A DNA stretch of 64,000 bases, from the IMG/VR virus record IMGVR_UViG_3300044529_000082, positions 8,299-72,298 of that record; one strand, given 5' to 3'. The first letter of the stretch is position 1. Each line of letters begins with the position of its first letter. A model generated the notes under the pieces. That model ran no database searches. It was not told the origin of the DNA and was given only the letters and a program-made list of their open reading frames with translations. The translations under genes and the position numbers were made by a program. Origin of the DNA: a virus. Positions 6,099-35,148 of this stretch are shown piece after piece.

Positions 6099-7018
6099 AC
6101 AAAAATAGCACAGTTTTTGTGACAGGGCATCGCGGACTCGTGGGGAGCGCCGTTTGCCGCGCGCTTACCGCCCAGGGCTTCACAAACATACTCACGGCGA
6201 CGCGCCAGGAGGTAGATTTGAGCGACCCCGTTCGGACCGAGACATTTTTTCACACCCGGCGACCGGAATACGTGATTCACTGCGCGGCCAAAGTGGGCGG
6301 CATCGTTTTTCACTCGAATAATCCGGTTTCGGCCATGTCCGAGAATCTTTTCATCAACGAAAATGTGATTCACTCCGCGGCTTGCACGAACGTAAAGAAG
6401 CTTTTGTTTCTGGGGTCCGCGTGCGCCTATCCCAGGCTAGCGGAAGTCCCAATCAAAGAGTCTTCACTGCTCTCCGGCTCGCTTGAGCCGAGCAACGAGG
6501 GGTATGCGCTGGCTAAAATTGTCGGCATCCGCCTGTGCCAGTATTATAAGCGCGAGCAGGGCAAGAATTTCATTTCGTGCATGCCCACGAATGTTTATGG
6601 GGTCGGTGATAATTACGATTTGAATAATTCTCACGTGCTGCCTGGAATGATGCGGCGCATGTATGCATGCAAGCTCGAAGGCGCGGCGGTAAAGCTGTGG
6701 GGAACCGGGACGCCCACGCGTGAATTTATTTTGTCGGACGATTTGGCACGCGCCTGTCTAGTGCTGATGGAAAAATATGATGGGGAGGAAACGGCGAACA
6801 TCGGCACCGGCGACGAAATCGCGCTCTCTTTTCTGGCGAAGCAGATAGCACGAACAATTGGATTTGCGGGCGAAATCAAGTGGGACCACTCGAAGCCGGA
6901 CGGAACGCCCCGGCGGTTTCTCGACTCCTCGAAAATTTTTCAGCTCGGATGGCGACCGCAGGTAACCTTAGAAGCGGGGATTAAACTGGCGTATGAGGAC
7001 TTTTTACAGAGGATATAA
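6095..7018 (+). CDS. fcl: GDP-L-fucose synthase
   Basis: [71 protein letters not shown]. Confidence 0.95.
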
Positions 7019-7020
7019 AA

Positions 7021-7977
7021 ATGAGCAAACGAGCTTTTGTTACCGGGCTTACTGGCCAGGACGGGGCGTATTTAGCCAAACTTTTATTGGACAAGGATTA
7101 CGAAGTTCATGGACTGATTCGCCGCTCCAGCGTGGACAATCTCTCACGGTTGGGTCCTCTGGCGTCCCAGTTGCAGCTACACTATGGAGACCTGGGCGAC
7201 TCTGGCTCGCTGGTTCGGGCGCTACGGAAAGCGCAACCCGATGAGGTTTTCAATCTCGGGGCCATGTCACATGTCGGCGTATCGTTCGACAACCCCGAAT
7301 ATACGGTGGACGTGACTGGCGCCGGAGCTATCCGTCTGCTCGAAGCGGTTCGCGACACCTGCCCGAACGCGCGCTTTTATCAGGCCAGCTCCTCCGAAAT
7401 GTTCGGCTCGACCCCGCCGCCTCAGAACGAGGAAACCCCGTTTCATCCGCGCAGCCCTTACGGATGCTCGAAGGTATTCGCCTATTGGGCCGCCGTGAAC
7501 TATCGAGAGTCCTACGGCATGTTCGTCAGCAATGGGATTCTGTTCAACCACGAGAGCCCCCGGCGCGGCGAGACTTTTGTTACGCGCAAAATTACGCGCG
7601 CGGTCGCCAATATCCACCTGGGCCGACAAAATAAGCTCCTGCTCGGGAATCTGCGCGCCCGGCGAGATTGGGGATTCGCGGGAGATTTCGTGAACGCAAT
7701 GTGGCTGATGCTCCAGCACGACACACCGGACGATTTCGTGGTCGCGACGGGCGAAATGCACACGGTCGCTGAATTCTGCGAGGCGGCTTTTAGTGTCGTG
7801 GCCCTCGACTGGCGCGAACACGTTCAGTCTGATGCGGCGCTGTTTCGCCCGGCCGAAGTGGACGCGCTCCAGGGAGACAGCACGAAGGCCCGGCAGCTCC
7901 TGGGATGGCAGCCTAAAGTCAGCTTTTCTGAACTGGCCAAAATGATGGTCGAATCCGATATTGAATCGCTCGCATGA
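7021..7977 (+). CDS. gmd: GDP-mannose 4,6-dehydratase
   Basis: [71 protein letters not shown]. Confidence 0.96.
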
Positions 7978-11754: not shown

Positions 11755-11978
11755 TGACAATTCAAGAGCATCATGTCCCCATAATTGCATCCGCGAATCT
11801 CGGCCTGGGTGGACTGTCCGTTCTGGTTTCTCAAATCGTCCCGCATCTTGCCACTATCGCGGTGCTGTTGCAGATAGCCGTGGCCGCGGTTTCGCTATGG
11901 CAGATGCTCAAGAAAAAATCGACCAATGAAAAAAACGTTCCCACAAATCCCGAAAGCCCGAAAACTAAATCCGATTGA
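11754..11978 (+). CDS. Putative holin / small membrane protein
   Basis: 74 aa, two hydrophobic segments, basic C-terminus, adjacent to the spanin-like gene. Confidence 0.5.
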   Translation: MTIQEHHVPIIASANLGLGGLSVLVSQIVPHLATIAVLLQIAVAAVSLWQMLKKKSTNEKNVPTNPESPKTKSD

Positions 11979-13170
11979 ATTGCGCGGTTCGACGGCTTGG
12001 CTAGGACTCACAAAAGGAAAGCGAACCCAGATAGACGCTGAAGACTTAGGTCGCGTAGCCGCCTTTCGGTGGAGCGTATCTTTGGCGGGTCCAGGAAAGC
12101 CTTACGCCAGGACGGCGTCCTCTGGCGAATCGATAGCGATGCATAGAATGCTGGCAGGAGCCTCTGCGGGAATGGACGTGGACCACATAAACGGAGATAC
12201 GTTAGACAATCGAAAAGAAAATCTTCGGGTGAGCACGCACGCAGAAAACTGCCGTAATCAAAAACCAAGAGCCGCGCATGGTCTCAAGGGGGTCTCGTTT
12301 AAGCCCGCCGATAGCTCAGGAAAGCCTTGGGCAGCCACTTTGCATCTGGGGCATTTTTCTACAAAAGAATTGGCAGCCAGGGCTTATGACAAGGCCGCCG
12401 TGTTTTTCTGTGGAAAATTTGCTAGATTGAATTATCCAATAGCACTAGGTATTCTAATGCTGGGACTTACTGGTTGCGGAATTTTGCCTAAACGTGTAGA
12501 ATTTTTTCAGGACAAGGTCCAGAGGTTTCCTGTCCCGGCATCTAAGCAAATAGAATTGCAGCGCGAGGTAGCGCGCAAGGCCAATGACAAGGCAGCGGAG
12601 ACCCTGCATCAAGCCATCAAAGAGAATTCGAGCCCCACGCTCTTGGTGCCCGCGGCAGAGACCGAGAAATTAACGGCTGCGGTAGCGGAATCAGTCGGCG
12701 CTCCTGCCAAATCACCGGCCAAGCTGGAAACGGACGCGCTAATCACCGACCTGCGCGCGCAGATGGCGAAGCTCGATAATAAGGTGACGGAGTTCGTGAA
12801 AGACAACAATGAAAACGCCGGAAAAAAGATTGAGGGAACGGGTCTGGTTCAAGTTCCTTATTTTGCTTGGACTGGCGGCATCCTGGTTTTTCTTCTTGTT
12901 GGCTGGTATATTCTGCGGACTGTGGCTGGGGCAGCCGCATTGGCCAACCCCGGAGCTGCCGTGGGTGTTGGTGCGATGAACGTCGCGGGCTCAGTTGTCA
13001 GCAAAGCTTTTCAGCAGGTTGTTAAAGGCGGCGAGGAGTTCAAGGACTGGGTAGGCAAGGAAATCAACGACCCGGCGCTAAAGCAAAAAGTTTTGGACGC
13101 GTTTACCGCCGCGCACAAGGAAACCCAGGACCAGGATGTTAAGAGCTTGGTGGACCACGTAATCAAATAA
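11926..13170 (+). CDS. HNH-AP2 endonuclease fused in-frame to a lipoprotein with C-terminal TM (unimolecular spanin-like)
   Basis: MHRML..VDHINGDTLDNRKENLR (HNH), LGHFSTKELAARAYDKAA..ARLNYP (AP2), then IALGILMLGLTGC lipobox, coiled coil and TM FAWTGGILVFLLVGWYIL. Confidence 0.75.
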   Translation: MKKTFPQIPKARKLNPIELRGSTAWLGLTKGKRTQIDAEDLGRVAAFRWSVSLAGPGKPYARTASSGESIAMHRMLAGASAGMDVDHINGDTLDNRKENLRVSTHAENCRNQKPRAAHGLKGVSFKPADSSGKPWAATLHLGHFSTKELAARAYDKAAVFFCGKFARLNYPIALGILMLGLTGCGILPKRVEFFQDKVQRFPVPASKQIELQREVARKANDKAAETLHQAIKENSSPTLLVPAAETEKLTAAVAESVGAPAKSPAKLETDALITDLRAQMAKLDNKVTEFVKDNNENAGKKIEGTGLVQVPYFAWTGGILVFLLVGWYILRTVAGAAALANPGAAVGVGAMNVAGSVVSKAFQQVVKGGEEFKDWVGKEINDPALKQKVLDAFTAAHKETQDQDVKSLVDHVIK

Positions 13171-13173
13171 TTT

Positions 13174-14298
13174 ATGCCTGACGGAAATAACTGCACGAGC
13201 TGCGGAGACGGGGACCAAAATCCCAATCCGCTAGACGCGTGCACGCGAAGCTTCATGGGCTGCGACAACCCGTGCGCCATAACGCAGCAGAACACGGTCG
13301 CGTGTGAGTCTCTTCCCTCGCGCGTCGAGAACTTCACGAAGAACTTTTTCGGCGATGTCATTCGAACCGAAGTAAACGGTCAGGTCATTTGGTCGTTGCC
13401 GTGCGGGCTCGATATCGGCCTGCCGAGCAACCCGCGCGGCGCGGACGAAGGGCTCGCGTGCTATTTTCTGCGGCTGTTCAATGACGGTATCGTGGGCCTC
13501 ACCGGTCCCGCCGGGGCAGCGGGGGCTCAAGGTCCGGCGGGCCACAACGCTTACACCGTCACGCTCCAGGGATTCAACACCCCGGCGGTCGGCGGAAGTG
13601 TAACGGTCTCGACATTCTACAATCCGGCCATGCTAGTGGGCGCCTACGTCCTAGTGGACACTTCGGGATGGTATATCATAACCGGCTCGAATGGCCTAGG
13701 CGTGCTCACTTTGCAACTCATTATCGCGGCGCCCGGCGCAGGATACACGACTGCGGGAAAGCTGGTCGTCCCCTCGGGGGCGCCCGGCCAGTCGATTACC
13801 GGCCCAAAAGGCGATATGGGAGATACCGGCCCGCGCGGCGGGGTCGGCCCGCAAGGCGCCACCGGCCCAAAGGGGGACACCGGTCCGGCCGGAGACAGCT
13901 TTCTCGCCAACAACGGCTATGTATCGGGCTCCGGCGGTAGCGACTTTAACATTCCGAACAACACATTTACCACGGTGAATTTTGGAACGGATTTCGGATT
14001 TGACACCACCGCGCAGGGAACATATTTTGTGATTACAACGTTCGGAGTCGTCAACGGTTCTGCGTCTCCGGCGACCGCGACGTTCCAGCTTTTCAATGCA
14101 ACCGACTCAATTTCGCATCCGGGCTCGCAGTCTCAGGTTTATTTGCTGGCCGGGGAAGAGGCTTCCGTGACTGTCACTGACTTAATCGCTCCTACAGGAA
14201 TAAATAAGCACATCGTATTGCAGGGGTCTTCGACAACGGCCGCAGCCAATTCAGTTGTCGCGGCGCACTCGGCGATGGTGCATTTCCAAATCGCGTAA
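13174..14298 (+). CDS. Collagen-repeat tail fibre protein 1
   Basis: Gly-X-Y runs (GPKGDMGDTGPRG...), Cys-rich N-terminus, beta-rich head. Confidence 0.7.
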   Translation: MPDGNNCTSCGDGDQNPNPLDACTRSFMGCDNPCAITQQNTVACESLPSRVENFTKNFFGDVIRTEVNGQVIWSLPCGLDIGLPSNPRGADEGLACYFLRLFNDGIVGLTGPAGAAGAQGPAGHNAYTVTLQGFNTPAVGGSVTVSTFYNPAMLVGAYVLVDTSGWYIITGSNGLGVLTLQLIIAAPGAGYTTAGKLVVPSGAPGQSITGPKGDMGDTGPRGGVGPQGATGPKGDTGPAGDSFLANNGYVSGSGGSDFNIPNNTFTTVNFGTDFGFDTTAQGTYFVITTFGVVNGSASPATATFQLFNATDSISHPGSQSQVYLLAGEEASVTVTDLIAPTGINKHIVLQGSSTTAAANSVVAAHSAMVHFQIA

Positions 14299-15453
14299 AT
14301 GAGCTGCAATCAAAATCCTCTTGACCCTTGCACTCGCAGCTTCATGCAATGCGATAATCCGTGCAACACTCACGAGCCGTGCAAGGAGTTGCTGCCGACC
14401 CAAATCGATACCTTTATCACGCAGTTTTTCGGGCAGCTTGGAAAGGCCAATTCAAACGGCTCTGTTGCATGGACGCTTCCCTGCGGATTAGACTCCGGCA
14501 CATCCGCGAATCCTCGGCAGGCAGGCGAGAGTTTGGCGTGCTATTTTCTCCGGCTCATGCAGGCCGGGCTGGCGGGAATCTCAGGTCTCCCAGGCGAGGA
14601 CGGGCAGGCGGGCGTCCCCGGACCGGACGCCTTCACCTACACGGAGCAGGATTTTTCTCAGCCCAGTGTAGCCAGTCCCTACTTATCGGTGAAGCTGCAT
14701 CCTTCCGCTTCGCTGGTAACCGGTCTATATGTGGAAATCGCCGGGTCGGGAATCTATCAGATTTTGAATCTCGCGGCGGACGGAACCGCGCTGCTTCAGC
14801 TCTTGACTGCGCTCGCCGCAGAGGGTTCTGTCATTCCTTCCGGCGCCACGGTCATAGCTTCCGGTTTTCCGGGCGTGCGTGTGCAAGGTCCACAAGGAGA
14901 AAAGGGCGACACCGGGCTTCAGGGGCCTCAAGGATTCATCGGCGCTACCGGGATAAAGGGCTCGCAGGGCGACCAAGGCGCCGAGGTTCCGTTAGTGAGT
15001 GGAAAATCGCTTTTTACTTCCGGCTCTTTTGTGGCCATTCCGAATACGGCTACCTGGGTCGCTCTGGCGTCTCCTCCTGATAGCCGATTTGTTGCGCCCA
15101 CCACAGATGCAGCGACGTATTTTGTCATATTCATATTGTTCCCCGGCTTGCTGGCCCAGGGAAGTTACCCTCCGGTCGCACACGGCGGTCTGCGGATGAA
15201 AATCAAGAAATTTGATGGAGCGGTCGAGGTCGGAGACGAAGACGGAACACTGCGCTACTGGGAATATAACACCACCCAGATACCGATGCCGTCTGAGTTC
15301 GTTTTGCAGATTTATCGACAGTGTGTTATTCCTTTTTTTGCGGTAAATAACGCCGGAGAATCTGGAAACTGGATACCCTACTATTATAGCGAGGTTACCG
15401 GTGATGGTTACGCTGGGTCTAGGGGGTCCATGGCAATCTGGTTTAAATTATGA
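14299..15453 (+). CDS. Collagen-repeat tail fibre protein 2, paralog of fibre 1
   Basis: Shares NPLDxCTRSFMxCDNPC, WxLPCGLD and LACYFLRL with fibre 1; Gly-X-Y runs; different C-terminus. Confidence 0.7.
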   Translation: MSCNQNPLDPCTRSFMQCDNPCNTHEPCKELLPTQIDTFITQFFGQLGKANSNGSVAWTLPCGLDSGTSANPRQAGESLACYFLRLMQAGLAGISGLPGEDGQAGVPGPDAFTYTEQDFSQPSVASPYLSVKLHPSASLVTGLYVEIAGSGIYQILNLAADGTALLQLLTALAAEGSVIPSGATVIASGFPGVRVQGPQGEKGDTGLQGPQGFIGATGIKGSQGDQGAEVPLVSGKSLFTSGSFVAIPNTATWVALASPPDSRFVAPTTDAATYFVIFILFPGLLAQGSYPPVAHGGLRMKIKKFDGAVEVGDEDGTLRYWEYNTTQIPMPSEFVLQIYRQCVIPFFAVNNAGESGNWIPYYYSEVTGDGYAGSRGSMAIWFKL

Positions 15454-23266: not shown

Positions 23267-24268
23267 ATGGATTTTGGAGGGGTCTTCGGCGCGGCCGGGC
23301 AAATCGCAGGAGCGTTTATCGCTTCTGACGCGGCTAAAAAAGCAACGGCTATACAGAATCAAGCGATGCAAGACGTGCGTACGCGTCTTGAGGGTGAGCT
23401 GTCGCCGTCCACACTTCAGCAAATCGCCACGCAAGGCGATACGCAACGCGCGCAGCAGCAGCAGCAGTTGTTTTCTCAGATGTTTCCCGACCTTGCCTCG
23501 GCATCGTCGGCGGCTCAGAAAAGCTTGCAGATGCAGGCCGGAGGTTACGGTGCTCAGTCCCAGGCTTCTCAGGTCGGCAACGCAGCCGTTGCGGACGCGC
23601 TAAAGAACGCGGGCGCTACGCAGCAAGGCCAGAACCAACTGATTGACGCCGCGCTCGAACAACTGAAGGCCGGAGCGACCCTGCCCCCGGACGTTGAAGC
23701 GCAGCTTGTGCAATCCGGTCTCGAATCGTCCGGGATGGTTACGCAGCACGCTTCGGGTCAAGGCATCGGCGGCCAGCAAATCCGCACCCTTCTCGGCACC
23801 GCGGGCATCCAGCTTCAGCAGCAACGGCAGGTGCAGGCCGCTAGTCTGCTCACGCAGGCGCAGAATCTCGAAACGCAACGCCAGTCCGTGCTTCAGGACC
23901 TTTTCCCCAAGCTATCTTCAGTCCAGTTGCAGCAGACGCAAGGCGCCGCCGGAATTTTCAATACTGCCCAGAGCGCCGTGCCTCAAGCGGGGCTCTCCGG
24001 CACCCAGCTCGCCAACACTTGGTTGCAACGTATTGGTGCGTTGAATCAGGCTCAGGAACAACAGGCCGGTATCAATGCCTCGGGGCAGCTTGCTCAAGGC
24101 CAGATTTGGGGTAACGCAATCGGCTCTGCGGTCGGCGGTCTCGGGTCTATGGGGATTGGGGGGATGGGCGGCGGAGGGGGCCAGAAAGTGAACAATGGCC
24201 CTGCGTTGTTTTCCAGCCTTCAACTGGGAAACAGCGGGCAGTCGGCAGACTTCGGAGGAGAGCTATAA
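23267..24268 (+). CDS. Probable DNA ejection / pilot protein
   Basis: 333 aa, Q/A/G-rich, N-terminal GGVFGAAGQIAGAF typical of internal virion proteins. Confidence 0.6.
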   Translation: MDFGGVFGAAGQIAGAFIASDAAKKATAIQNQAMQDVRTRLEGELSPSTLQQIATQGDTQRAQQQQQLFSQMFPDLASASSAAQKSLQMQAGGYGAQSQASQVGNAAVADALKNAGATQQGQNQLIDAALEQLKAGATLPPDVEAQLVQSGLESSGMVTQHASGQGIGGQQIRTLLGTAGIQLQQQRQVQAASLLTQAQNLETQRQSVLQDLFPKLSSVQLQQTQGAAGIFNTAQSAVPQAGLSGTQLANTWLQRIGALNQAQEQQAGINASGQLAQGQIWGNAIGSAVGGLGSMGIGGMGGGGGQKVNNGPALFSSLQLGNSGQSADFGGEL

Positions 24269-24269
24269 T

Positions 24270-25763
24270 ATGGCGGGAATCGGCCAACCTGATGTAGAAC
24301 CACTGAGCGGCGGTGCCGCAGCGCAACCGCTAGTTTCGCCCATGCAGCCCGTTTTGACACCGAACGCGGTGCAACAGCTCGTGGACGCGGTCCACAATGG
24401 CGCCATCAACACGATTGATATCGCTAATCGGATTGGCGCTGTAGCGCAGGCGGAGAAAAAAGCGAACCTCGAAAAGCTCGGCGAATACGTTTCTCCCGAA
24501 GCGATTCAATCGCGCATGTCGCAGCTTCGAGCGCAGGGCCAGCAGGCACAGCTCACCGGTGCCCAGGCGGAAGCAGCCCAGGGGCTAGTGCAACCGGCAA
24601 CTGAAAGCCAGCTTCAGGACATAATCCAGAAAAACGAAACTCGATACAGCGCTCCTGCCGTCTCAGCCTACACCCAGTTCAATCCGCCCATTTACAAGGT
24701 GGACGAAAACGGCAACCCGACGAAGGAGTATGACGTTCAAGCCATGTCACGTGAGGGTTCGAGGTATGTCCGCGCGCAGAGCATGCTCGCTTTAGCGGCG
24801 GATGGATTAAAAGCGACGCCGACGCAGATGAAGAATCCTAAAACCGGAGCGCCGGTCACCGTGTGGCTCAATGCCAAAGGCGAGGATGTCACTCCCGTAG
24901 CTGGAAATAAGTCATACGAGTTCTATAACCAGATGCGCCGAGATGCCTACGAAGTTTTCCACGAGAAGCCGGACACTACTCCGCACGTTGAGCCAGTAAA
25001 AAACGCGGAGGGCATTAACATTTTGCCGAAAGACAATCCTCCGGCTGGAATGATTACGGGGCCGGACCAAGAAGCCGTTCCCGCACCTGGAGTTACCCCG
25101 CAGGCGTCGCAAGGAGCCGCCGCGGCGGACCCCACGCTTACTCAGCCCGCCATCGTCGCAACTTCAGAGCAGCCGACAGTTGCTCCAGATTATATGCCAT
25201 ATCAAGGAATGCAGGTCGGCCCGGTCCAGACTCCGCCCGAGGCGACGAAAGCTTTCGAAGAGAAACCGGACGTAAAAGCCTTTTACACGAGCCTTCCAGT
25301 TTACACCGGATTTGCTGACGCGTCGCGGCAGTCGATTCAGCAGCCCAGTAGCGTCTCGGACCTCGCCCTGGCAGAGTCCTACAGCAAGCTTTTCGACCCG
25401 CAATCAACGTTGCGAGAATTCAAATTCGACGCCTTGCAAAAGGCGATTCCCTGGTTGTCCAAGTTCAAAGACGCGCTCCCCATCATCGAACGCGAGCACA
25501 TGTTTCCGGACAACGTTCGAAAAGCCATCGCGCGCTCAGGGCTAGACGTGATTAACTCGCGCGAGAAAGCGCTAGTTCCGCGGCTGCAAGAAGCGCAGGC
25601 CGAAGGTGCGCTTTTGGACCCGGAGCAAAGAAAGATTCTCGCTGGCATTCCTTTTAGCTCCCGGGCCGGGCTGGACCCAATGCTCGCGGGCGCGCCCGGG
25701 TCCGCACCTGGATTGACGACACTTCCATCCGGACGGCGGGTCCGGTTCGTTCCTGGCCCTTGA
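24270..25763 (+). CDS. Probable DNA ejection / internal virion protein
   Basis: About 497 aa, helical, DLALAESYSKLFDPQSTLRE motif; synteny. Confidence 0.55.
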   Translation: MAGIGQPDVEPLSGGAAAQPLVSPMQPVLTPNAVQQLVDAVHNGAINTIDIANRIGAVAQAEKKANLEKLGEYVSPEAIQSRMSQLRAQGQQAQLTGAQAEAAQGLVQPATESQLQDIIQKNETRYSAPAVSAYTQFNPPIYKVDENGNPTKEYDVQAMSREGSRYVRAQSMLALAADGLKATPTQMKNPKTGAPVTVWLNAKGEDVTPVAGNKSYEFYNQMRRDAYEVFHEKPDTTPHVEPVKNAEGINILPKDNPPAGMITGPDQEAVPAPGVTPQASQGAAAADPTLTQPAIVATSEQPTVAPDYMPYQGMQVGPVQTPPEATKAFEEKPDVKAFYTSLPVYTGFADASRQSIQQPSSVSDLALAESYSKLFDPQSTLREFKFDALQKAIPWLSKFKDALPIIEREHMFPDNVRKAIARSGLDVINSREKALVPRLQEAQAEGALLDPEQRKILAGIPFSSRAGLDPMLAGAPGSAPGLTTLPSGRRVRFVPGP

Positions 25764-25793: not shown

Positions 25794-26159
25794 ATGAATA
25801 TGCTACTTATCTTGGCGGCGGGACTGTATATTTCGAGTAATCCGCAGTGGCGCGCTTTTCTGCGCGCGCTCCCCTGGTGGATATTTTTGCCCCTTGTGGC
25901 CGGTTTTTGGTCGCCCCTTGCCGGTTGGGTGCTGTTTATCCCACTCGCTGCCCTAAAATCGCTGCATTTAATTTTTACCAAAGGCCCGCGTATTTGTAAA
26001 TCCGCGATTAAGGCAGTTCGAGGTTTTTGGAATGCGATGCGGCAGGGCGCCCAGAAGCGTCCAGAACGACCTTTTGCATGTTCTGGAATGTATCCCATTT
26101 TCGAGATTCGAAATCCCGACCACATTTCATTACCGACCCAAGCCAATGCCGTTCGTTGA
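25794..26159 (+). CDS. Small membrane protein (moron, possible superinfection exclusion)
   Basis: Hydrophobic Trp/Pro-rich N-terminal half, own host-type promoter, inserted between ejection genes. Confidence 0.5.
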   Translation: MNMLLILAAGLYISSNPQWRAFLRALPWWIFLPLVAGFWSPLAGWVLFIPLAALKSLHLIFTKGPRICKSAIKAVRGFWNAMRQGAQKRPERPFACSGMYPIFEIRNPDHISLPTQANAVR

Positions 26160-29100
26160 CGAAAATAATCAGCCAGTTCAACTATCTCCCGAAGACCAAG
26201 CTGCCTATTGGCAGCAGAATCCCCCGGCGGGCGCCCTCGTCGATGAATCCGGAAAACCGATAAACGCACTGCGCGATTTGTCAGCCCCGGACCTAGCGGC
26301 GCTTTCCACTGACCAGAAAGACAAGTTCGACCTTCTTTCCGCGTTTAATGCGGACCCCGAAGCGCAGAAAAATCCGGACACTGTTCAAAAAGTCGCGGAC
26401 GCTTTTCACATCCTGCGCGAGCAGCCGCTATTGACCGGCGTCACCCCCACTGGAGTAATCAAGAACGTTTGGAATACCTTTGCTGGGCTCGGGAGATACG
26501 GCGCCAAGACGGCTATTGGGACGGGCCAAATGGCAGAAAGCTTAGCCGCCCGCGCGCTCCCCGGAGATACCGCCGAAACTTTTGCAAATCAGACTGAGAC
26601 GGCAGGAAGGCAGAATCTGGGAGAGACCGCCGCCGCCACTGAACAGGGAATGACCGGCCTCGTCACCGCCGCGACAAAAGTCGCCGCAGCGTTAGGCCGC
26701 GGATTGCACCTGACTAAATCTCTTTCAGACTATTCTCCCGAAGACAAACGAAATGCGCTTTTCGATGCTGCCGCGGTTGCGCAGCAGGCCCAACAGACCG
26801 CTACCGGGCAAGGCCCCATAGCGCAAGCCGTCACGGGCGGCGCCGTCCCTGTCCGACCCGAGGAAGTCAGCAAGCTCACTTCTCCGTTTGACTGGGAAGC
26901 GCTCGGCGGTTTGACCCGCGGAGCCGCCGCAGTCACTCCCGAAGTGCTGGGCTCCGCAAAGGCGGCCGCGGGCGAGTTACTCGCCAAAGGTGCGGGCAAA
27001 ATATCTGACGTCGCTTCGCGCATCGGCGCGGGAACGGCGCGAGTCGCCGAAAAGGCCGCTCCAGTAGCCGCGGCAGTGGGCGTTCCGACATATGCTATTG
27101 CCACGGGGGACGCGCATCTTTTGGCCGAGTCTCTGCTTTTCGGCAGCAGCGCGGGAGAGAAAGCCGCCGCCGTCGCAGAGAAGACTGCAAAGGGTCTGGA
27201 TGCGGCTAGCAAGTTCGCAAAGCAGGTATCTGGAGAAGTGCCGGTAACTTCTGCATATGCCCAGGCGGCCCGTGATACGCTACTCGCGGCCCCGGCCGCG
27301 GCGGTAGAACTGGGCAAAGGCGCGGCATTCGATGTCGCAATGGCGTCTGGCGCCGACACTCCGCAAGAACGTCAAGCTGCCATCGGGCTGGGCACCGCGT
27401 TCGGATTACTCGGTGCCGCCAATATGGCCGGGCGGCACGTAATAAGCGGGCAGCTAATAGCCCCCCGGGGATATGACATTTCAATGCCAGTTTCGGGAAG
27501 CGGAAGATTTCCGGCGCTAGAAGCATTGCATAAAGACGCGTTTTCTCAGCTCGCGCCGGGGCAGCAGCAACGGCTAAATGCCGTGCGCTCTTTCTTAAAG
27601 AAGGCGTCCCCGAATACGGACGTTTTCGCCCTTGGCGAAGACCCCGCGGTGGTTTCTGATGCATTGCAGAAAACGGGGCTCTCTCCGGAGCAAGCAGACT
27701 TCTATTCCCAGCAGGCCGGTTTTAGCACAAAAATCGGGGACCGCAAAATAATCGGAGTTGCGGAACCCGGCGCGGCTCCGCACGAGGCTTTTCACGGAAT
27801 CGAAGACGTAATTGGCGCAGCTAAAATGCGAGAGCTGGATGCCGTAACCAAGCAACAATACGCAGACCGGTGGAATGATTTCGGTCGGTATTATGCGCAA
27901 CGGCTAACCGGTCAAGACCCTGGAGCTGATTGGAAAACCCCGATTCTCACTGCCTCGAAATGGGGGTCCGCTGACGCGGGCGAAAAGCTTTACCGAGAGA
28001 CGGCAAATCAATATGTTTTAGAAGCTAAACGCAACGGCCAGCCGATGCCGACCGAGCAAGAGATTCGAGACGCCGTGAATCTCAGCGCTCCTCGTCTTCC
28101 GGATGGAACGGTGGATTGGCAAAAAGTGCTTACCCCGGCTGAGCAGCAAGAAACGGCAGACCGCTATATTGCCCGAGAAAAGCTCGCTGAAAATTTCGAT
28201 GCCTTTTTCAAGCACGCCGGGCCAACGCTTGAATCCGGCAAACAGGTGCCCGAGAAGATTGCCCAGATAATGGGCCAGATGATGCAGTTCTTTGGCGTAA
28301 ATCCGCTAGCGGGTCGCGCCAGCGAAGCGCTGCACGTGCCGCTGAATCCAGACGTAATTAAGGCCGTGTCCGAAGCTGGGCGCGGGGCAATCCCCGAAGC
28401 TCCAGAGATAGCGTCTAAAACTCTAAGCGCGCCGTCCCAGTCCCGCGCGCCGATGCCCGTAACTCCGCAGCAGCAGCAAGAGGCCGCCGACGAGGCTCGT
28501 CAGGCTGCCGCCGCCGCTCCTACTACTCCCGTTGCGGGCGGCACGCAATCGCCTCGGGAGATTCTGGGCGCAATCGCGGAGTCTATTGCTAGCCGAACCG
28601 GAATCAAGCTGAATTATCTCTCGGCCCCCGATGAACCGGCGGCCGCAATTTCGATGAATCGAAAGGTCCGGCGCGCGCTAATTGAGGCAGGCCGAACCAT
28701 GAGCGCCGCGGGAAAATCGCTGTGGGAAAAAAGCTTTTTCCCTGAGCGAGTCATCCAAAACAAGAACGGCTCTTTTCAGGTCTCGGGCTGGGCGCCGGAG
28801 GTCTTTGCAGCCAATGTTCACAGAACGGCGCAGGAAGTTAGCCAATTAGGGCATCCGCAACTGGTGCCCTATCCGCTGGACCCAAAGACCGGTTCTCTTA
28901 CTCCGGATGGTTGGCGCCAGCTATACGAAGACACGCAGAAAGCGGTCCGCAATTACGTGGGCGGCTACACCGCATCCGGCGAGGATTTGGTGGTTCCTCG
29001 GTCCGCGGTTGCCGCTGGCGCGTCAAAGCCGCCAGTCCGCGGCGCCGCGGAAGCGTTAGACCAGAATAAAGCGGATTTCATCAATGCCATGTTCGGGATA

Positions 29101-32100
29101 AAGCTCCCGAAGACTCCTCGAATTTCTACCAAAGAGCTTGGATTACCGACCGCGATTGTAGGCGAGGATATCAGCCGGGCCACTCTTCCAGGCCGCGTGC
29201 AGCCGCCGATAGTCCCGCGCGGAACCTTTGAGGGGCCGAAGGCAGAAGCGCTCGGCATCGCGGGGCGCCCGATAATGGAAGTCAACCCCTGGCGCAATCA
29301 GGCAGAAGCCGCGGGCTTTGATTCGTCGAAGCTAATCGAAGCGCGCCAGAATCTCAACGTTGACAACATCAAAGACGTTGCGATGACCCCAGAGCAGCCG
29401 CAGTTCCGTGGGAATACTTTGACCCTTCAAGCCGGATTCATGCCTGCCGAAATCTCTCCCGAGAAAGAGGCCAGTATCCAAGAGCGAATCGCCCGGGGAA
29501 TCCCTCCGGCGAATATCCGCCTGTCTATTTTCAATGACCCGTCGCTGCCTGAAAAATATCATGGGGTCCAGGTGGACGAAGTTGACCCGAGCGCTCCGCC
29601 CGGACAACGGAATATCTTTTCGAGCAACCCGGAAGACATGCGGCGGCTTGGATATGACATGCCGACGACCCAGGAGCTGCTCAAGCTGCCTTTTGGGCAG
29701 CACACCCTGGCGGACGCGAAGAAAGTTCTTGGCGGCAAAGAACCGACCGGCCAGTTTAGTCCTGCCGACACGGCCGGAGTAACGAATCAAAGCGACGTTC
29801 GAGAAGCCCGCAAGGCGTGGCGCGAGCAAGGCGTCCAGTCTCCATATTTCAAGCGGTGGTTCGGTGACAGCAAAGTGGTGGACGAGAGCGGGGGACCGCT
29901 GGTTATCTATCATGGCACTACGCATAACTTTGACCGCTTCGCCAACGTCCGCGGAAATCCAGAAAACTCGCTGGGCATAGGGCACTATTTCACCACGGAC
30001 GAAAACGATGCTTCTGGAAACTACGGCACTACAACGAGCTCGGATTTGAATTCGCGACTTGAGTGGCGTGTTGACCAGTTGATTGGTGAGGATATGCCCG
30101 AGGCTGCGGCCAGAAAACAGGCTCGCCGGGAACTGGTAGGCCGCACAGAAAAGGTAATTCCTGCGTATCTGAAACTGGAAAATCCGGTAGTGCTCGACCC
30201 GAAAGGCGGCACGCATTTCAATTACGATTACGACGAGAGCACCGGCCAAGAGTCGGGAACTTCAGTTGACCTTTACAATGAATTAATGCGGCTCGGGGCC
30301 GAGCACAAATTCGACGCTCAATCGGTGTGGAACGACATCACTGAGAATGGGGCGGATGACCTAAAAGCGTATGATATTTGGAAGGAGATTAAGGATTCGG
30401 ATGCCATGCTGGACGCGACCGATGAAAATGGAAATCAGCTCAGCTCAGAAATCGCGCGGCAGCTTTTTGAAAACCTGGGATACGACGGAATAGAGCTCGC
30501 CAATCCGGCCGACGAGTATCAGGGGATGCGCCTCGACCCCGACACCAAGCACTACGTCGCTTTCAATTCTGAGCAGGTCAAAGGCGTTGAAAATCGCGGG
30601 ACATTTTCTCAACAGGACCCGCGTTTTCAGTTCCTTCCTTCGGATGAAAATCGCGAAGAGGAATCAGTGCCCAAAACGTTTATTGTCCGTCACGGCAGCA
30701 CCGAAATGAATAATGCGGACCCCGCGAAAGATTTGATACGCGGGCATCTTGACGTGCCTTTGGACGATAAGGGAAAGAAGGAGGCCAAAGAGACCGCCGC
30801 AAAGATTGCCGAGCAAGGCGGAGTCTCGCACATCGTCGCCTCGGACCTGGGCCGCACGCTCCAGACCGCTGCGGAGATTTCCAAGGCGACCGGCGCCACG
30901 ATTGAACCGGACCCCGGCTTACGCCCGTGGAAGCTGGGACCGACAATCGAGGGCCATCCAACCTCGAAGATGCTGCCGAAAATTGCGGAGCTTACCGACA
31001 ATCCCGACACCCGTCCTCCGGGCGGAGAAACCTTCAACGAATTCAAGGACCGTTTTCTGTCCGCATGGAACCGCATCCAGGCCGAGCATCCGGACAAAAA
31101 TACAGCCGTGGTGACGCATTATCGAGGCACTAAGCTGCTCGACGCATGGCGCGCGGCTGGCGTGGATAACAACGAAATCGACAAAGGGGTTTTCGAGACT
31201 TACGACAAGAACAAAAAGCCGGGGCACGTGGACGTGGTTGACAAGACAGGAAACGCCTTTTCCGGCGCCCCGGCTAAAGAAACTCCCGCCGCTCAATTTG
31301 CCACTCGAAAAGCCAAGCAGGATTACGAATTCAAAGAGTCGCCCGGCTCATTGTTCAGCAAGGCGTGGGTTCTTCCTAACGGAAAGATTGTCCAGCTCGG
31401 GGGCAAGTGGCACCATGAATGGGTGAACGAAAATCCGGAAGTGATGAAGCAATTCGGTCTGAAGAAAACCACGAGCGGAGAAGAGAACCGCGTGGATGCT
31501 CTGAAAAGAGGGTTCGCGCGCGTCAACTACGAGCGGAATACCGGCACGCTGAAGGTAGAAGCCCGCGCGCAAGACTGGGCTCGGCTATCCCCATCGATTA
31601 AAGAAATGGTCCGGGCCAACCTGGGGCGAGTCGATAACATGGACGTGCATTTGCTCGACGATAAAGCGCAGAACATCGTCGAGCAGGACGGGGTCGCACT
31701 GCACACCTATGACCCCGAGGAGCGCATGGACCACATTCCGCTGATTACGGAACCCAGTGCCACGACTACATTTTCTCCGCAGAGCTCGGCAGAATCTAAC
31801 CGCGGCGCTCAGTTTATGCCCGAGACCCGCTGGTACGGGCAAGAGCGGGAAGGCGAAAAAGAGCATAGGTGGGACGCGCTAAGTAATTCTATTTTACATC
31901 CTGACATGCGAACCCCTGCCAATGAAGGGGAGGCCCCAGAGGTTACTTTAGAGGCTCTAAAAAAAGAGGGGTATAAGACGGTGGACTGGGCCGAGACACC
32001 TACCTTTCACGACCATACAACGCGAGCCGTTTTCTATAAGAACGACCGAGGACGATTCCCTTTATCTGAAGAGGGGGTTCGCAAGGCATCGGAAGCCGCG

Positions 32101-35100
32101 AGGCAGCAGGAAAAAAAAGTGCAGGCCATTGCGTATCCGCAAGATTCAGACGTCCAATTTATGCCCGGCGGAGACGCCAGAGCAATCAAAGCAGCCGCTA
32201 TTCGTGACCCAGAGACCGGCAAAGTCTATGAAGGCCCGATGCACTTCATGGCGCGGCAGAACTACATCAAGGAACACCCCGGCTTCGACCCGATGAACTT
32301 TTTCAAGTTCGAAGAGGGATTCACCGATAACGGGGACCGTTTTCTGAGCCGCACGCAAGCCTTCGAGCGGGCCAAGGAACTGAAGCAGCTGAAGCCGGTG
32401 GTTGGGGCCAATCAAAAAAACGCCGAGCAGACGTATGACAAGCTCGGGCAGCTGGCCAGTGAGCGAACGCAATTAGCGCAATTCTTTCCCATGCAAAAAG
32501 GCGAAGGACCGGACGAAGTTTTACGAACCGCAAGAAAATTCTGGGTCACCAACGGAGGGGAGACGCGCCCTGCTTGGGGCACGCATGCGCATCAGGCGGC
32601 GCAAGAAATTCTTGGAGACTGGAAACCTAAGGACCCCGAAAACGCAGGTCCCGAAACGAACGAAGAGGCCATCAGGCGCGGGCATGTTCGGGGCGTATAT
32701 CGGATGTATCCGCACATGCTGGATTTGAACGGCAGGCCTTGGTCCGAGCTTTCGGTTCCTGCGCAAAAAGAAATAAGGCGACTATCTCAGAGCTTAGCGC
32801 TTCCGACAGATTACAATGGACGTCCCGTTGACACGGGCGTGGGTCCGTTTCCGCTCGACTCAGAAAACGTCCAATTTATGCCCGGCGGAGACCCTCGCGC
32901 GATTCGCGCCGCGGCAATCCGCGACCCGGACACCGGCGAAGTCACCGAAGGGATGGCGCACTTTTACGCGCGTATGAAGCATTCCGAGGAGCACCCCGGG
33001 ATGGGCCCGTTCAATTACTTCAAATTTCAAGAGGGCTTCGTGGACAACTCCGGGAATTTCCTCGACCGAGTCCAAGCGTTCGAGCGCGCGAAAGAGCTGA
33101 ATCAGCTCAAGCCCGCCGCTACTCCAGGCCAGAAAGATTTGCATGAACAGTTTGACCGGATGGGCAAACTGGCCGCGGAACGGGTGGCGACATCCCAGTT
33201 TATGCCTAGCCGAAGAGAGGCAGACAACATTAAAGACGAAATCGAACCGCTTTTTCAAAAGCACGGTATGTCTTTAGACGTGGTTGGGTCTTTGTCAAAA
33301 AAACCTGAAGGAAACGACATCGATTTTCATTTGCGGCCTGAAAAATCGGGCGCCACTATTGAAGAACAAATGGGGTCATTTTACGACCATATTGCGCCAG
33401 AGCTAAAAAAACAAGGATGGGACCTTCGTGATACCAACAATCCTCGGGATTATGTCCATCCTGTTCGCGGCAAAGAGTGGTTCGTTTCGGCGGACGACCC
33501 TAAAGGTAATACTGTTGAATTTTTTATGTCAGGGCCTGAAGGATTCGACAGTGCTCAATTTAGACCCGGTGCGGCGCCGGAGGAATTCAAGGACGAAAAA
33601 ACGCTGCCCGCCGCTTTGACAAAACCAAACTGGGCCGTGCTCACCGCAACCCAGGAATCGCTCGGCGCGGGGACCGACAAGGTAAATCAAGAAGCCAATC
33701 GGCGCCTGGAAAAAGAACTAAAGGCGGCCGGATTCAACCCAATTCCGGTCAAAGGGAATTACAAAGGCGTTGACCAGGGCATGAATTATTTGGTCACTGG
33801 AATGACCCCGGACGAAGCAGTCGCCTGGGGTCGGAAATTCGGCCAGGAATCTGTTCTCACTCCGCGCGGGCTGCTTTATGGGGACGGCTCGCTTAGCCCG
33901 GCCATTCCGGAAGAAACCACAATCGGAGACCGGGCCAAAAAACAGGATTTCTATTCTCAGATTGAAGGCGGCCCCGCGTTCAGCATGGGCATCGACTTCG
34001 GCAAGCGGGTCCCGGCTGCAATTGATACCGGCGCACTCCCCGGGTTCGAGGGCGAAATCGGCTCGCCCAAAACGCGTGCCCTATCTACCGTCGAGAAGGG
34101 CAACATGACGATGAAGCAGCTCGGCGAGCAGTTCCCCGAAGCTGTGGTCCCGCGGAAGAAGGACGAAGCAATTCCGTCCAAGATTACCGAGTCTCCGCTT
34201 TACAAACAGGCCGGTAGTGAAGAGAACGCGGTTAAAGCTTTTGCAAAACGGCTTGTCGATTTCGCCAAGCAGTATAAGGACCATCCGGCGTTTGAAGACG
34301 GAAAAACGTGGTATGACCACATCGCGCCGAAAATCAAAAAGCACTTTGGCAAGACCGGACAGCTTTTTGCCGAAATGCTGGCGGCCACTTCGCCGGGCCA
34401 GAAGCCGGACACGAATTTTGCTGATGCGCTGGCGGCACATGACATGGCCGTCGCGGGCAAGTATGACAAGCAAGTCAAAAAACTCGTCCAGGGCCTCGAC
34501 ATGATTGAAAAAGACACGTGGCGCGGCTGGCTGACAAAGCACGGAACAGACCTGCCCGAGACTCCCACGCCAGAGACTTTTCTGGGCCAGTGGATTGATT
34601 TTCACGACCTCAAGCCGCGCAAGGAAAACGGCGCGCTTTACGGTTACAATTCCGTGCAGGTGCTCAAGGTTGCCGCGCGCAAGTGGCTTTCTGAGGCGGG
34701 ACCTAAGACGAGCAATTTCATCCAGAACCTGCTCGGCACGGGGCACGAGGCGACGATTGACCTTTGGGCAGACCGCACCATGCGATGGGCCGGATACGAG
34801 GGCGCAAAAGACCGCTGGCGGATTCTGCCGGAGAACAAGTCCGGGGTATCAGACGAGGATTTCGCTTTCGCGCAGAAGGCATTTTCGGCCGCCGCTAAAG
34901 AGCTTGGAATGCGCCCGGACCAGCTCCAGGGCGCCCTGTGGTTCGCCGAAAAGCAGCGTTGGGCGGACAACGGCTGGTCTCCGCTCGACCTAGGGACCTA
35001 CGAACCAGAATTCGCGAAAATCGAGCAACGCCGTGCGGGCGCGCGTCAAACCGCCGCCATCAAGCAGCAGGCGAAAAAGGCCGCTCCGGCATTGACAGGA

Positions 35101-35148
35101 GAGCAAATCGGGTTTAACCTGGGGCCGGACATGATACAACCAAAATGA
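26146..35148 (+). CDS. Giant (~3000 aa) polyvalent internal virion protein
   Basis: Ala-rich ejection-like N-terminus; HEAFH zincin; ART-like module (YHGT, GHYFT, GYDG); histidine phosphatase (RHG); NTase-like (GS..DID); DUF3293-like; C-terminal glycosylase-like domain. Confidence 0.8.
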   Translation: MPFVDENNQPVQLSPEDQAAYWQQNPPAGALVDESGKPINALRDLSAPDLAALSTDQKDKFDLLSAFNADPEAQKNPDTVQKVADAFHILREQPLLTGVTPTGVIKNVWNTFAGLGRYGAKTAIGTGQMAESLAARALPGDTAETFANQTETAGRQNLGETAAATEQGMTGLVTAATKVAAALGRGLHLTKSLSDYSPEDKRNALFDAAAVAQQAQQTATGQGPIAQAVTGGAVPVRPEEVSKLTSPFDWEALGGLTRGAAAVTPEVLGSAKAAAGELLAKGAGKISDVASRIGAGTARVAEKAAPVAAAVGVPTYAIATGDAHLLAESLLFGSSAGEKAAAVAEKTAKGLDAASKFAKQVSGEVPVTSAYAQAARDTLLAAPAAAVELGKGAAFDVAMASGADTPQERQAAIGLGTAFGLLGAANMAGRHVISGQLIAPRGYDISMPVSGSGRFPALEALHKDAFSQLAPGQQQRLNAVRSFLKKASPNTDVFALGEDPAVVSDALQKTGLSPEQADFYSQQAGFSTKIGDRKIIGVAEPGAAPHEAFHGIEDVIGAAKMRELDAVTKQQYADRWNDFGRYYAQRLTGQDPGADWKTPILTASKWGSADAGEKLYRETANQYVLEAKRNGQPMPTEQEIRDAVNLSAPRLPDGTVDWQKVLTPAEQQETADRYIAREKLAENFDAFFKHAGPTLESGKQVPEKIAQIMGQMMQFFGVNPLAGRASEALHVPLNPDVIKAVSEAGRGAIPEAPEIASKTLSAPSQSRAPMPVTPQQQQEAADEARQAAAAAPTTPVAGGTQSPREILGAIAESIASRTGIKLNYLSAPDEPAAAISMNRKVRRALIEAGRTMSAAGKSLWEKSFFPERVIQNKNGSFQVSGWAPEVFAANVHRTAQEVSQLGHPQLVPYPLDPKTGSLTPDGWRQLYEDTQKAVRNYVGGYTASGEDLVVPRSAVAAGASKPPVRGAAEALDQNKADFINAMFGIKLPKTPRISTKELGLPTAIVGEDISRATLPGRVQPPIVPRGTFEGPKAEALGIAGRPIMEVNPWRNQAEAAGFDSSKLIEARQNLNVDNIKDVAMTPEQPQFRGNTLTLQAGFMPAEISPEKEASIQERIARGIPPANIRLSIFNDPSLPEKYHGVQVDEVDPSAPPGQRNIFSSNPEDMRRLGYDMPTTQELLKLPFGQHTLADAKKVLGGKEPTGQFSPADTAGVTNQSDVREARKAWREQGVQSPYFKRWFGDSKVVDESGGPLVIYHGTTHNFDRFANVRGNPENSLGIGHYFTTDENDASGNYGTTTSSDLNSRLEWRVDQLIGEDMPEAAARKQARRELVGRTEKVIPAYLKLENPVVLDPKGGTHFNYDYDESTGQESGTSVDLYNELMRLGAEHKFDAQSVWNDITENGADDLKAYDIWKEIKDSDAMLDATDENGNQLSSEIARQLFENLGYDGIELANPADEYQGMRLDPDTKHYVAFNSEQVKGVENRGTFSQQDPRFQFLPSDENREEESVPKTFIVRHGSTEMNNADPAKDLIRGHLDVPLDDKGKKEAKETAAKIAEQGGVSHIVASDLGRTLQTAAEISKATGATIEPDPGLRPWKLGPTIEGHPTSKMLPKIAELTDNPDTRPPGGETFNEFKDRFLSAWNRIQAEHPDKNTAVVTHYRGTKLLDAWRAAGVDNNEIDKGVFETYDKNKKPGHVDVVDKTGNAFSGAPAKETPAAQFATRKAKQDYEFKESPGSLFSKAWVLPNGKIVQLGGKWHHEWVNENPEVMKQFGLKKTTSGEENRVDALKRGFARVNYERNTGTLKVEARAQDWARLSPSIKEMVRANLGRVDNMDVHLLDDKAQNIVEQDGVALHTYDPEERMDHIPLITEPSATTTFSPQSSAESNRGAQFMPETRWYGQEREGEKEHRWDALSNSILHPDMRTPANEGEAPEVTLEALKKEGYKTVDWAETPTFHDHTTRAVFYKNDRGRFPLSEEGVRKASEAARQQEKKVQAIAYPQDSDVQFMPGGDARAIKAAAIRDPETGKVYEGPMHFMARQNYIKEHPGFDPMNFFKFEEGFTDNGDRFLSRTQAFERAKELKQLKPVVGANQKNAEQTYDKLGQLASERTQLAQFFPMQKGEGPDEVLRTARKFWVTNGGETRPAWGTHAHQAAQEILGDWKPKDPENAGPETNEEAIRRGHVRGVYRMYPHMLDLNGRPWSELSVPAQKEIRRLSQSLALPTDYNGRPVDTGVGPFPLDSENVQFMPGGDPRAIRAAAIRDPDTGEVTEGMAHFYARMKHSEEHPGMGPFNYFKFQEGFVDNSGNFLDRVQAFERAKELNQLKPAATPGQKDLHEQFDRMGKLAAERVATSQFMPSRREADNIKDEIEPLFQKHGMSLDVVGSLSKKPEGNDIDFHLRPEKSGATIEEQMGSFYDHIAPELKKQGWDLRDTNNPRDYVHPVRGKEWFVSADDPKGNTVEFFMSGPEGFDSAQFRPGAAPEEFKDEKTLPAALTKPNWAVLTATQESLGAGTDKVNQEANRRLEKELKAAGFNPIPVKGNYKGVDQGMNYLVTGMTPDEAVAWGRKFGQESVLTPRGLLYGDGSLSPAIPEETTIGDRAKKQDFYSQIEGGPAFSMGIDFGKRVPAAIDTGALPGFEGEIGSPKTRALSTVEKGNMTMKQLGEQFPEAVVPRKKDEAIPSKITESPLYKQAGSEENAVKAFAKRLVDFAKQYKDHPAFEDGKTWYDHIAPKIKKHFGKTGQLFAEMLAATSPGQKPDTNFADALAAHDMAVAGKYDKQVKKLVQGLDMIEKDTWRGWLTKHGTDLPETPTPETFLGQWIDFHDLKPRKENGALYGYNSVQVLKVAARKWLSEAGPKTSNFIQNLLGTGHEATIDLWADRTMRWAGYEGAKDRWRILPENKSGVSDEDFAFAQKAFSAAAKELGMRPDQLQGALWFAEKQRWADNGWSPLDLGTYEPEFAKIEQRRAGARQTAAIKQQAKKAAPALTGEQIGFNLGPDMIQPK

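Follow-up and report, generated by a model that had tools for sequence, protein, structure and literature searches.

Junction peptides between the modules of a giant phage polyvalent protein as candidate processing sites

Phages and plasmids widely encode polyvalent proteins, and Iyer, Burroughs, Anand, de Souza and Aravind proposed in 2017 that they travel with the DNA and are processed by zincin-like metallopeptidase (MPTase) domains (PMC5512222). They have since been thought to be cut into individual effectors, at sites that remain unnamed in the literature we searched. The main texts on polyvalent-protein cleavage, virion location and proteomics describe no junction motif, and in the main text of PMC5512222 the words 'linker', 'interdomain' and 'boundaries' do not occur, while 'cleavage site' stands only in the title of a reference. 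Among established systems, the closest parallel for the cutting of packaged proteins at a motif comes from phiKZ-like phages, whose prohead protease, a separate enzyme, is reported to cut ejection proteins, such as gp245 of SPN3US, at a short recurring consensus motif (PMC10052503, PMC7411985). Here we describe a giant open reading frame (ORF), P0001, on the plus strand of a 64,000-nucleotide stretch of viral DNA, referred to as the window, which corresponds to bases 8299-72298 of the 72,298-bp single-contig virus record IMGVR_UViG_3300044529_000082 (CheckV completeness 100%). We propose that P0001 encodes a polyvalent protein in which a short peptide precedes the modules, is probably a cleavage site and is tentatively read by a zincin-like domain of the same polypeptide.

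In our reading, the gene encodes a three-part phage polyvalent protein. An N-terminal core of about 1,100 amino acids (aa) with a zincin-like H[ED]xxH motif would be followed by a variable array and by a C-terminal DUF7178 module. The array would consist of small effector modules, among them an ADP-ribosyltransferase (ART), a histidine phosphatase, DUF3293 and several modules without known fold. Each module would be preceded by a flexible-linker peptide composed of a small residue, Gln, Phe, a variable residue x and Pro. A first-pass annotation had listed ten such motifs in the C-terminal part of the protein. All ten lie in frame 1 of P0001 and read as it gave them, and the segment lengths of 106, 292, 222, 172, 115, 108, 131, 108, 120 and 530 aa derive from the confirmed positions. 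The annotation had seen no motif in the first ~1100 aa, and the strict form QF.P was indeed not found before residue 1241, where the near-motifs are QFFG (752) and QFRG (1124) only. In the whole protein, QF.P occurs eight times against 0.44 expected by composition, a number that none of 2000 shuffles reached. When three-residue patterns of the forms abc, ab.c and a.bc were counted without prior choice, QF.P ranked first in the protein (Poisson p 2e-8). AGFMP, without Gln, and AQFAT, without Pro, are variants among the ten motifs. The motifs at 2041 and 2280 (VQFMPGGD...) open paralogous modules and are therefore not independent of each other. The motif marks ten of eleven module boundaries; the unmarked one separates DUF3293 from DUF7178 near residue 2663 and is occupied by QFSP or QFKP in relatives. 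Outside P0001, QF.P is found in one real ORF only (24195..25763, residue 161), at about chance level and in a poorly conserved region, and head-protease sites common to other virion proteins were ruled out on this ground.

The motif is shared with relatives of the protein. A homolog search with residues 1100-3038 yielded 83 proteins of 1,889-5,116 aa, including the window's own gene call. Ten close relatives (P0003-8, P0011-14) contain four to nine QF.P against 0.31-0.48 expected, which speaks for the conservation that the first-pass annotation had made a test of its reading. P0009, P0010 and P0015-17 carry one or two copies each, and the 67 distant polyvalent proteins (P0018-84) never more than two. 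Over the relatives, the junction consensus is a small residue, Gln (less often Arg, Lys, Gly or Ser), Phe (less often Tyr, Leu, Met or Ala), x and Pro. The core of the QFxP motif as annotated holds, but the consensus proves wider, with x varying by lineage. Inside one protein x is near-uniform, and between lineages it differs: FLP is found in L015, FMP in P0016 and mostly here, F[KR]P in P0013 and P0008, F[AS]P in P0012, FQP in many proteins, FMA in P0017 and YMP in P0018.

This concerted behaviour of x was assessed by shuffling x among proteins, with pairs of junctions of similar downstream sequence excluded. For 28 non-redundant relatives, 111 of 309 within-protein pairs shared x, compared with 43.8±6.0 in shuffles that ignore relatedness between proteins (0/5000 as high). 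An independent set came from a profile search with the HExxH region at E (expect value) <=0.001, which gave 228 representatives, one per 50%-identity cluster; among the best 150 of these 228, the region lies at about residues 430-880 of proteins that mostly have 1.9-3.4 thousand residues. In 104 full-length representatives, 602 of 1568 pairs shared x, compared with 291±16 under the same kind of shuffling, blind to relatedness (0/2000). The x ahead of one and the same module, D, equals the majority x at the other junctions of its host protein in 20 of 34 cases, against 9.4±2.0 by chance (0/5000). Past residue 900, the top enriched three-residue pattern is junction-like in 67 of the 104 representatives, and in 47 of the 56 where it has p<1e-5; of the 16 representatives whose top pattern within the first 900 residues passes the same threshold, none has a junction-like one. 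As far as the sequences tell, x tracks the protein and not the module. Since x is uniform across the junctions of one protein, one co-evolving partner would read all of them, and we regard the same-x counts as the strongest basis for the single reader per protein that is implied here.

Conservation acts on the peptide. Codons vary at the motif, which uses CAA and CAG, TTT and TTC and all four Pro codons, and the five QFQP copies of L008 likewise differ in their codons; conservation is therefore at the peptide level and not that of a recombination sequence. The annotation had also seen in the motif a joint for adding or swapping modules. The pattern bears this out, whereas a mechanism at the DNA level is not supported, and a DNA recombination signal was rejected because the motif codons are unconserved. 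The Pro codon is CCT or CCC (CCY) in eight of eight strict motifs here, against a CCY background of 41% and with CCG as the gene's commonest Pro codon; we treat this bias as chance because it is weak in the relatives (26 of 45 vs 43% background). Internal translation starts at the ATG within QFMP were rejected as well, since x is Gln, Lys, Ser, Ala or Leu in relatives. We regard it as very likely that the junction peptide is a selected signal.

The modules between the motifs are shuffled among relatives. Sixteen loci with DNA were taken from IMG/VR and metagenomes, and 16 family proteins were split at the motif and the pieces clustered. Core A was found in 13 of 16 and module B in 12 of 16 proteins, with a variable middle. 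The order here is A, x106, ART, His_Phos, D, G, E, H, E, x120, DUF3293, B, whereas P0004 reads A K L I J D. G ART H F B and P0012 reads A M. His_Phos. D H E S G T. Breaks in homology fall at the motif. In the variable region, 138 of 372 BLAST high-scoring segment pairs (HSPs) start within -5..+4 of a motif Gln compared with 18 of 372 for random positions, and 95 of 380 end at 0..+14 past it compared with 29. Between P0001 and P0004, whose module orders differ, all six variable-region HSPs begin -2..+4 residues from a motif in both proteins. P0003 and P0005 are more than 80% identical elsewhere and differ by one module gained or lost exactly between two motifs. The His_Phos module (KTFIVRHGSTEMN) directly follows a motif in six of eight proteins while its upstream modules differ. 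The cassette array delimited by the motif, and gain or loss of modules at QFxP, as annotated, are both borne out by these comparisons. In the distant protein P0019 (4,583 aa) we observed six tandem ART modules at residues 1133-2046 and a seventh at 3814; each closes with NRGTF(D/S)...D-I-(R/L)-(F/L/M) ahead of its successor, seemingly a junction peptide of another kind.

In the one module that was modelled, the motifs also lie outside the folded core. Module D was modelled with AlphaFold2 from a 12-sequence alignment, and its core, residues 1765-1904, reached a predicted local distance difference test (pLDDT) above 90. The QFAT at 1755 lies ten residues ahead of this core at pLDDT 57-68, and the QFMP at 1927 belongs to a stretch of 50 residues whose pLDDT block means are 41-57, within a segment below 50 (175-197, model numbering). 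The annotation had placed the motifs at apparent domain boundaries, and in module D, the sole module modelled, they flank the folded core. That each segment is one complete domain, as the annotation supposed, agrees with the model for D and with the Pfam envelopes of ART (1284-1523) and His_Phos (1550-1700), which fill their inter-motif segments; the check was limited to these three. The D model itself resembled no clear fold, neither in Foldseek (best Rai1, E 0.015, template modelling score (TM) 0.24) nor in VIA-align (best Z 5.6, gelsolin-like, 80 residues).

For a candidate reader we looked at the H[ED]xxH region of core A, where the motif is found at residues 300-1100 in 102 of the 104 representatives. 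In an 11-sequence alignment (model numbering), H117, H121, E249, E253, N254 and F255 are invariant and E118 is present in at least 90%; Y143 and Y154 of the region are also invariant. E249 or E253 might supply the third zinc ligand, and Y143 or Y154 the catalytic Tyr, of an M34-type site. The AlphaFold2 model (mean pLDDT 75.4, predicted TM score 0.72) orders three strands, the HExxH helix and a later helix bearing the conserved Glu residues E249 and E253, with a large variable helical insert between the two helices. VIA-align was run against 48,161 chains; the tool sets a caution line at Z 8, below which a match may reflect a common arrangement only. The long matches were all zincins or zincin-derived: the Pro-Pro endopeptidase (PPEP) PPEP-3 (9g0j; Z 6.1, root-mean-square deviation (rmsd) 4.5, 167 aligned residues), the catalytic domain of anthrax lethal factor (1yqy; Z 6.1, rmsd 4.6, 162 aligned residues), PPEP-2 (6fpc; Z 5.6) and the lethal-factor-like domains of Certhrax (Z 5.9) and edema factor (Z 5.3), with LasB and thermolysin lower, near Z 4. 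The model hence bears a weak likeness to zincins, and we describe the region as zincin-like without assigning it to M34. Hidden Markov models (HMMs) of the prohead-protease families S78, ClpP and S77 matched nothing in the genome (100% complete according to CheckV), a search that divergent proteases may escape. No protease family was found among 30 phage ORFs scanned by Pfam. With no such match and only one other ORF with QF.P, the embedded domain is therefore the only protease-like element found.

We therefore favour, with some confidence, the reading that the motif is a cleavage site; self-processing, in which the protein's own zincin-like domain cuts the junctions, we hold more tentatively and with real doubt. 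The junction peptide would be a site-specific processing signal with one reader for all junctions of a protein, for which the zincin-like domain is the likeliest candidate. PPEPs read a six-residue window from P3 to P3' and require Pro at P3' (PMC12828418). By analogy, the scissile bond would be Gln|Phe, with Phe then occupying P1', the lineage-specific x P2' and the invariant Pro P3'. Such cutting would turn the modules into individual enzymes, either inside the capsid or once the host has been entered. Any tagged module would be releasable, and the array could therefore take up, lose or rearrange modules and still function, so that the junction tag would also account for the free gain and loss of modules.

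Several results weigh against this reading. Cleavage products have been observed for neither the giant protein nor any relative. According to PMC5512222, as far as its main text goes, the N4 virion RNA polymerase bears an MPTase domain and yet is packaged unprocessed. The structural match to zincins is weak, with Z about 6 lying under the caution line, and Foldseek of the zincin-like region returned nothing at E<=0.001, the best row being lethal factor at E 0.38. No Pfam peptidase family was found in the giant protein at E<=1, MPTase-PolyVal (PF18818) was unmatched in the genome at E<=10 and a profile of the zincin-like region found no PDB sequence at E<=10. Of the earlier interpretation of the locus, the cassette array and the conserved, functional junction peptide were upheld, but the HEAFH domain has no match to the Pfam MPTase-PolyVal family. 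Five of 27 relatives that have this region carry non-canonical active-site motifs while their junction motifs stay uniform: HDALH in P0008 (seven junctions), HDAGH in L015, HEIIGH in P0010, HEAAGH in P0011 and, with the first His lost, GEEMGH in L008, which retains six QFQP. Judged by sequence, it is difficult to see how the HExxxH and GExxxH forms could bind zinc. HDxxH is stable across a whole clade (11 of 104 representatives) and may therefore be active. This clade mostly has FLP junctions (7 of 11 vs 5 of 91 for HExxH), a link that comes down to a single clade and in which descent is a confounder; though confined to that clade, it could reflect a changed yet working site that co-varies with the code. 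Covariation by eye of residues next to HExxH with the junction flavour is likewise confounded by descent and was not used. A complex prediction of the zincin-like region with Zn and a 34-aa junction peptide scored 0.02 (mark 0.32) and is no evidence either way.

Weighed against cleavage, it appears somewhat unlikely to us that no proteolysis is involved and the peptide is a short linear motif, repeated for avidity in a protein that stays whole like beads on a string and serving for docking to the capsid, portal or internal core, for pacing the unfolding during ejection or for binding a host factor. Peptide-level conservation and a concerted x need only one co-evolving binding partner, and the motifs lie in flexible linkers. 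The virion RNA polymerase of N4 is transferred at full length according to PMC5512222, as are certain polyvalent proteins of plasmids, and the polyvalent protein gp47 of phi24B (2811 aa) has been detected by proteomics in virions in a 2026 preprint whose main text gives no processing (10.64898/2026.04.10.717836). In contrast, the motif here is not clustered but sits at module boundaries, and its invariant Pro three residues after Gln, its hydrophobic residue after Gln and its small residue before it form a pattern like that of protease subsites. To our knowledge, no packaging or translocation signal of such form is known. Diverse enzymes would be expected to work better when freed, and DUF7178 does occur as stand-alone viral proteins of 412-481 aa (protein-atlas feature search, scores 0.94-0.96); the C-terminal module is therefore also a separate gene in other phages.

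Cleavage could also take place in trans by a host protease or an unrecognised phage protease, with the H[ED]xxH domain serving in attack on the cell wall or host proteins or in encapsidation; we regard this as unlikely. Such a separate enzyme would agree with the lineages bearing GEEMGH, HEIIGH and HEAAGH, which keep uniform junctions, and the lineage-specific x could follow different hosts. Phe, Tyr, Leu or Met at the aromatic position fits the P1 preference of chymotrypsin-like proteases, and the separate phiKZ-like prohead protease provides a precedent. Its appeal is lowered by the unmatched S78, ClpP and S77 models and the lack of a Pfam protease family in the 30 ORFs, by the retention of H[ED]xxH in nearly all representatives and by the single other ORF with QF.P, since a head protease normally also cuts capsid or scaffold proteins. 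Very improbable, finally, is a functionless linker remnant that spread with the modules by duplication and recombination. Two of the ten motifs do open the paralogs E1 and E2, and the C-terminal tail of ART overlaps part of the motif (NRGTF...D-I-R-F in distant proteins). A remnant, however, is at odds with the same four residues standing ahead of unrelated modules with differing synonymous sites, and with a same-x signal that persists once pairs with similar downstream sequence are excluded and in which x follows the host protein. Nor would it explain why the junction is the top enriched pattern in about two-thirds of the representatives, unlike in the first 900 aa.

If cleavage by the embedded domain is accepted, each lineage might even possess a private protease-substrate code, in which the zincin-like domain co-evolves with its own junctions and any tagged domain becomes a releasable effector. 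We consider this extension rather doubtful; if true, it would amount to plug-and-play building of injected enzyme arsenals. An N-terminal Phe is a bacterial N-degron. If the cut were at Gln|Phe, every released module would start with Phe and hence carry a built-in removal timer.

The features of P0001 are compiled in Table 1. Four Pfam domains, ART-PolyVal, His_Phos_1, DUF3293 and DUF7178, each lie within a single inter-motif segment; the ART-PolyVal match has E 3e-15 and 57.7 bits against a cut-off of 31.2. Scanned singly at E<=5, x106, D, G, both copies of E, H, x120 and residues 1-1134 gave no Pfam family. Core A ends in a conserved PQFRGNTLTLQ-AGFMP. A profile of module B found weak rows only among PDB sequences (E 0.039), and as stand-alone D genes we found two short proteins only (116 and 140 aa), which probably are fragments. 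Module x120, unmatched in Pfam at E<=5, carries VVGSLSKKPEGNDIDF, which we take to resemble the G-S...D-x-D signature of minimal nucleotidyltransferases. MAFFT placed fragments of module E on module D, with invariant His, Gly and Phe columns in both (QFxP ... G..H ... GF); this may be an artefact of the alignment or may point to distant homology between D and E, the commonest of the middle modules.

Table 1. Coordinates in the window of the giant ORF, its modules and its junction peptides
Feature	Position	Strand	Description
Giant ORF (P0001)	26032..35148	+	3038 aa counted from first ATG
Core A, conserved N-terminal	26032..29433	+	residues 1-1134; no Pfam family; Ala/Gly-rich stretch
Zincin-like region, modelled	27433..28422	+	residues 468-797
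HEAFH	27781..27795	+	residues 584-588, inside conserved A-P-H-E-x-x-H-x-x-x-D-V-x-G
Junction 1	29431..29445	+	AGFMP, residue 1134; variant, G for Q; end of core A
Module x106	29434..29751	+	residues 1135-1240; no family, no homolog within set
Junction 2	29749..29763	+	GQFSP, residue 1240
Module N	29752..30627	+	residues 1241-1532; ART-PolyVal (PF18760) at 1284-1523
Junction 3	30625..30639	+	FQFLP, residue 1532
Module C	30628..31293	+	residues 1533-1754; His_Phos_1 (PF00300) at 1550-1700
Junction 4	31291..31305	+	AQFAT, residue 1754; variant, T for P
Module D	31294..31809	+	residues 1755-1926; commonest middle module; AlphaFold2 core 1765-1904
Junction 5	31807..31821	+	AQFMP, residue 1926; linker with pLDDT below 50
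Module G	31810..32154	+	residues 1927-2041; no family
Junction 6	32152..32166	+	VQFMP, residue 2041
Module E copy 1	32155..32478	+	residues 2042-2149
Junction 7	32476..32490	+	AQFFP, residue 2149
Module H	32479..32871	+	residues 2150-2280; no family
Junction 8	32869..32883	+	VQFMP, residue 2280
Module E copy 2	32872..33195	+	residues 2281-2388; paralog of copy 1
Junction 9	33193..33207	+	SQFMP, residue 2388
Module x120	33196..33555	+	residues 2389-2508; no Pfam match; one homolog (in P0020)
Junction 10	33553..33567	+	AQFRP, residue 2508
Module F	33556..34020	+	residues 2509-2663; DUF3293 (PF11697) at 2548-2608
Module B, conserved C-terminal	34021..35145	+	residues 2664-3038; DUF7178 (PF23802) at 2888-2973; degenerate preceding junction

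The genome around P0001 is that of a divergent uncultured phage, since most of its proteins have no PHROG or Pfam match. A nucleotide search of phage records gave zero matches, and tblastn found single-module matches only, with coverage of at most 14%. Recognisable in the plus-strand block is the terminase large subunit just upstream of the window; collagen-repeat (collagen-like fibre) proteins and a Big_7 protein are also encoded in the genome, and the opposite strand carries DNA polymerase A, DUF2800 and RNA ligase. P0001 is the last large gene of the plus-strand block that begins at the terminase. Its protein probably starts at M39 (26146), which yields 3000 aa, because the database gene call has 3000 aa and residue 1 of P0004 aligns to residue 39. 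From the position of the gene at the end of this block and the analogy to phi24B gp47, the giant protein would be packaged in the virion and injected with the DNA.

The terminase large subunit itself (L001 4660-7653) is unusually long at 997 aa, with the terminase match confined to residues 100-400, and a serine-recombinase or invertase-like gene (phrog_95/125) lies at L001 3070-3921, also upstream of the window. Downstream of the terminase, the plus-strand block contains a weak glycosyltransferase-like gene (4513..5364), an NAD-dependent epimerase (6059..7018) and a GDP-mannose 4,6-dehydratase (7021..7977, 433 bits), three genes that could serve virion glycosylation or modification of the host surface. 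An endonuclease VII domain protein (8744-9241, E 6.5e-22) lies inside this late block, and an HNH endonuclease gene (11926..13170) directly precedes two adjacent, paralog-like collagen triple-helix repeat genes (13174..14298 and 14299..15453), which probably encode fibres. Right after the giant gene, a gene for 227 aa (35330-36013) is syntenic in 12 of 16 related loci; its residues 61-227 share 37-53% identity across these loci, and it has no Pfam, PHROG or usable Atlas match.

Compared with described systems, the giant protein is like the polyvalent proteins in being a phage-encoded single polypeptide with eleven modules, the ART-PolyVal hallmark and an HExxH domain, which however differs from the Pfam MPTase-PolyVal domain (PF18818). 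The main text of PMC5512222, its supplementary alignments aside, names no cleavage site, and what is added here is the junction code with its concerted x. With the M34 zincins (PPEP-1, PPEP-2, PPEP-3 and the catalytic domain of lethal factor), which include its best long structural matches, the modelled region shares a predicted HExxH helix after beta strands, and the Pro required by PPEPs at P3' would match that in Q|F-x-P. It is not, however, a member of this family by sequence and sits in a 3,000-aa phage protein, whereas those zincins are secreted. The phiKZ-like ejection proteins are likewise packaged and cut at a short recurring motif, which for the prohead protease is A/S/G-x-E. That protease is a separate enzyme that also cuts capsid proteins, whereas here the S78, ClpP and S77 models matched none, the motif is confined to one protein and, unlike in the phiKZ-like case, it separates complete enzyme modules in a shuffled array.

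The giant protein and its ~230 relatives (50% identity clusters) supply exact, residue-level candidate cleavage sites, and tag and protease together, if confirmed, could be useful as a programmable release system. Polyproteins of RNA viruses, such as those with picornavirus 3C sites, are likewise made as a single product with a protease inside it and have short conserved peptides with Gln at their junctions. They belong to RNA viruses of eukaryotes and differ in protease class and in the fixed order of their products, whereas order and content of the modules here vary among close relatives. Polyvalent proteins and their proposed processing by MPTase domains are known; the junction code appears to be new, as none of the papers searched describes it.

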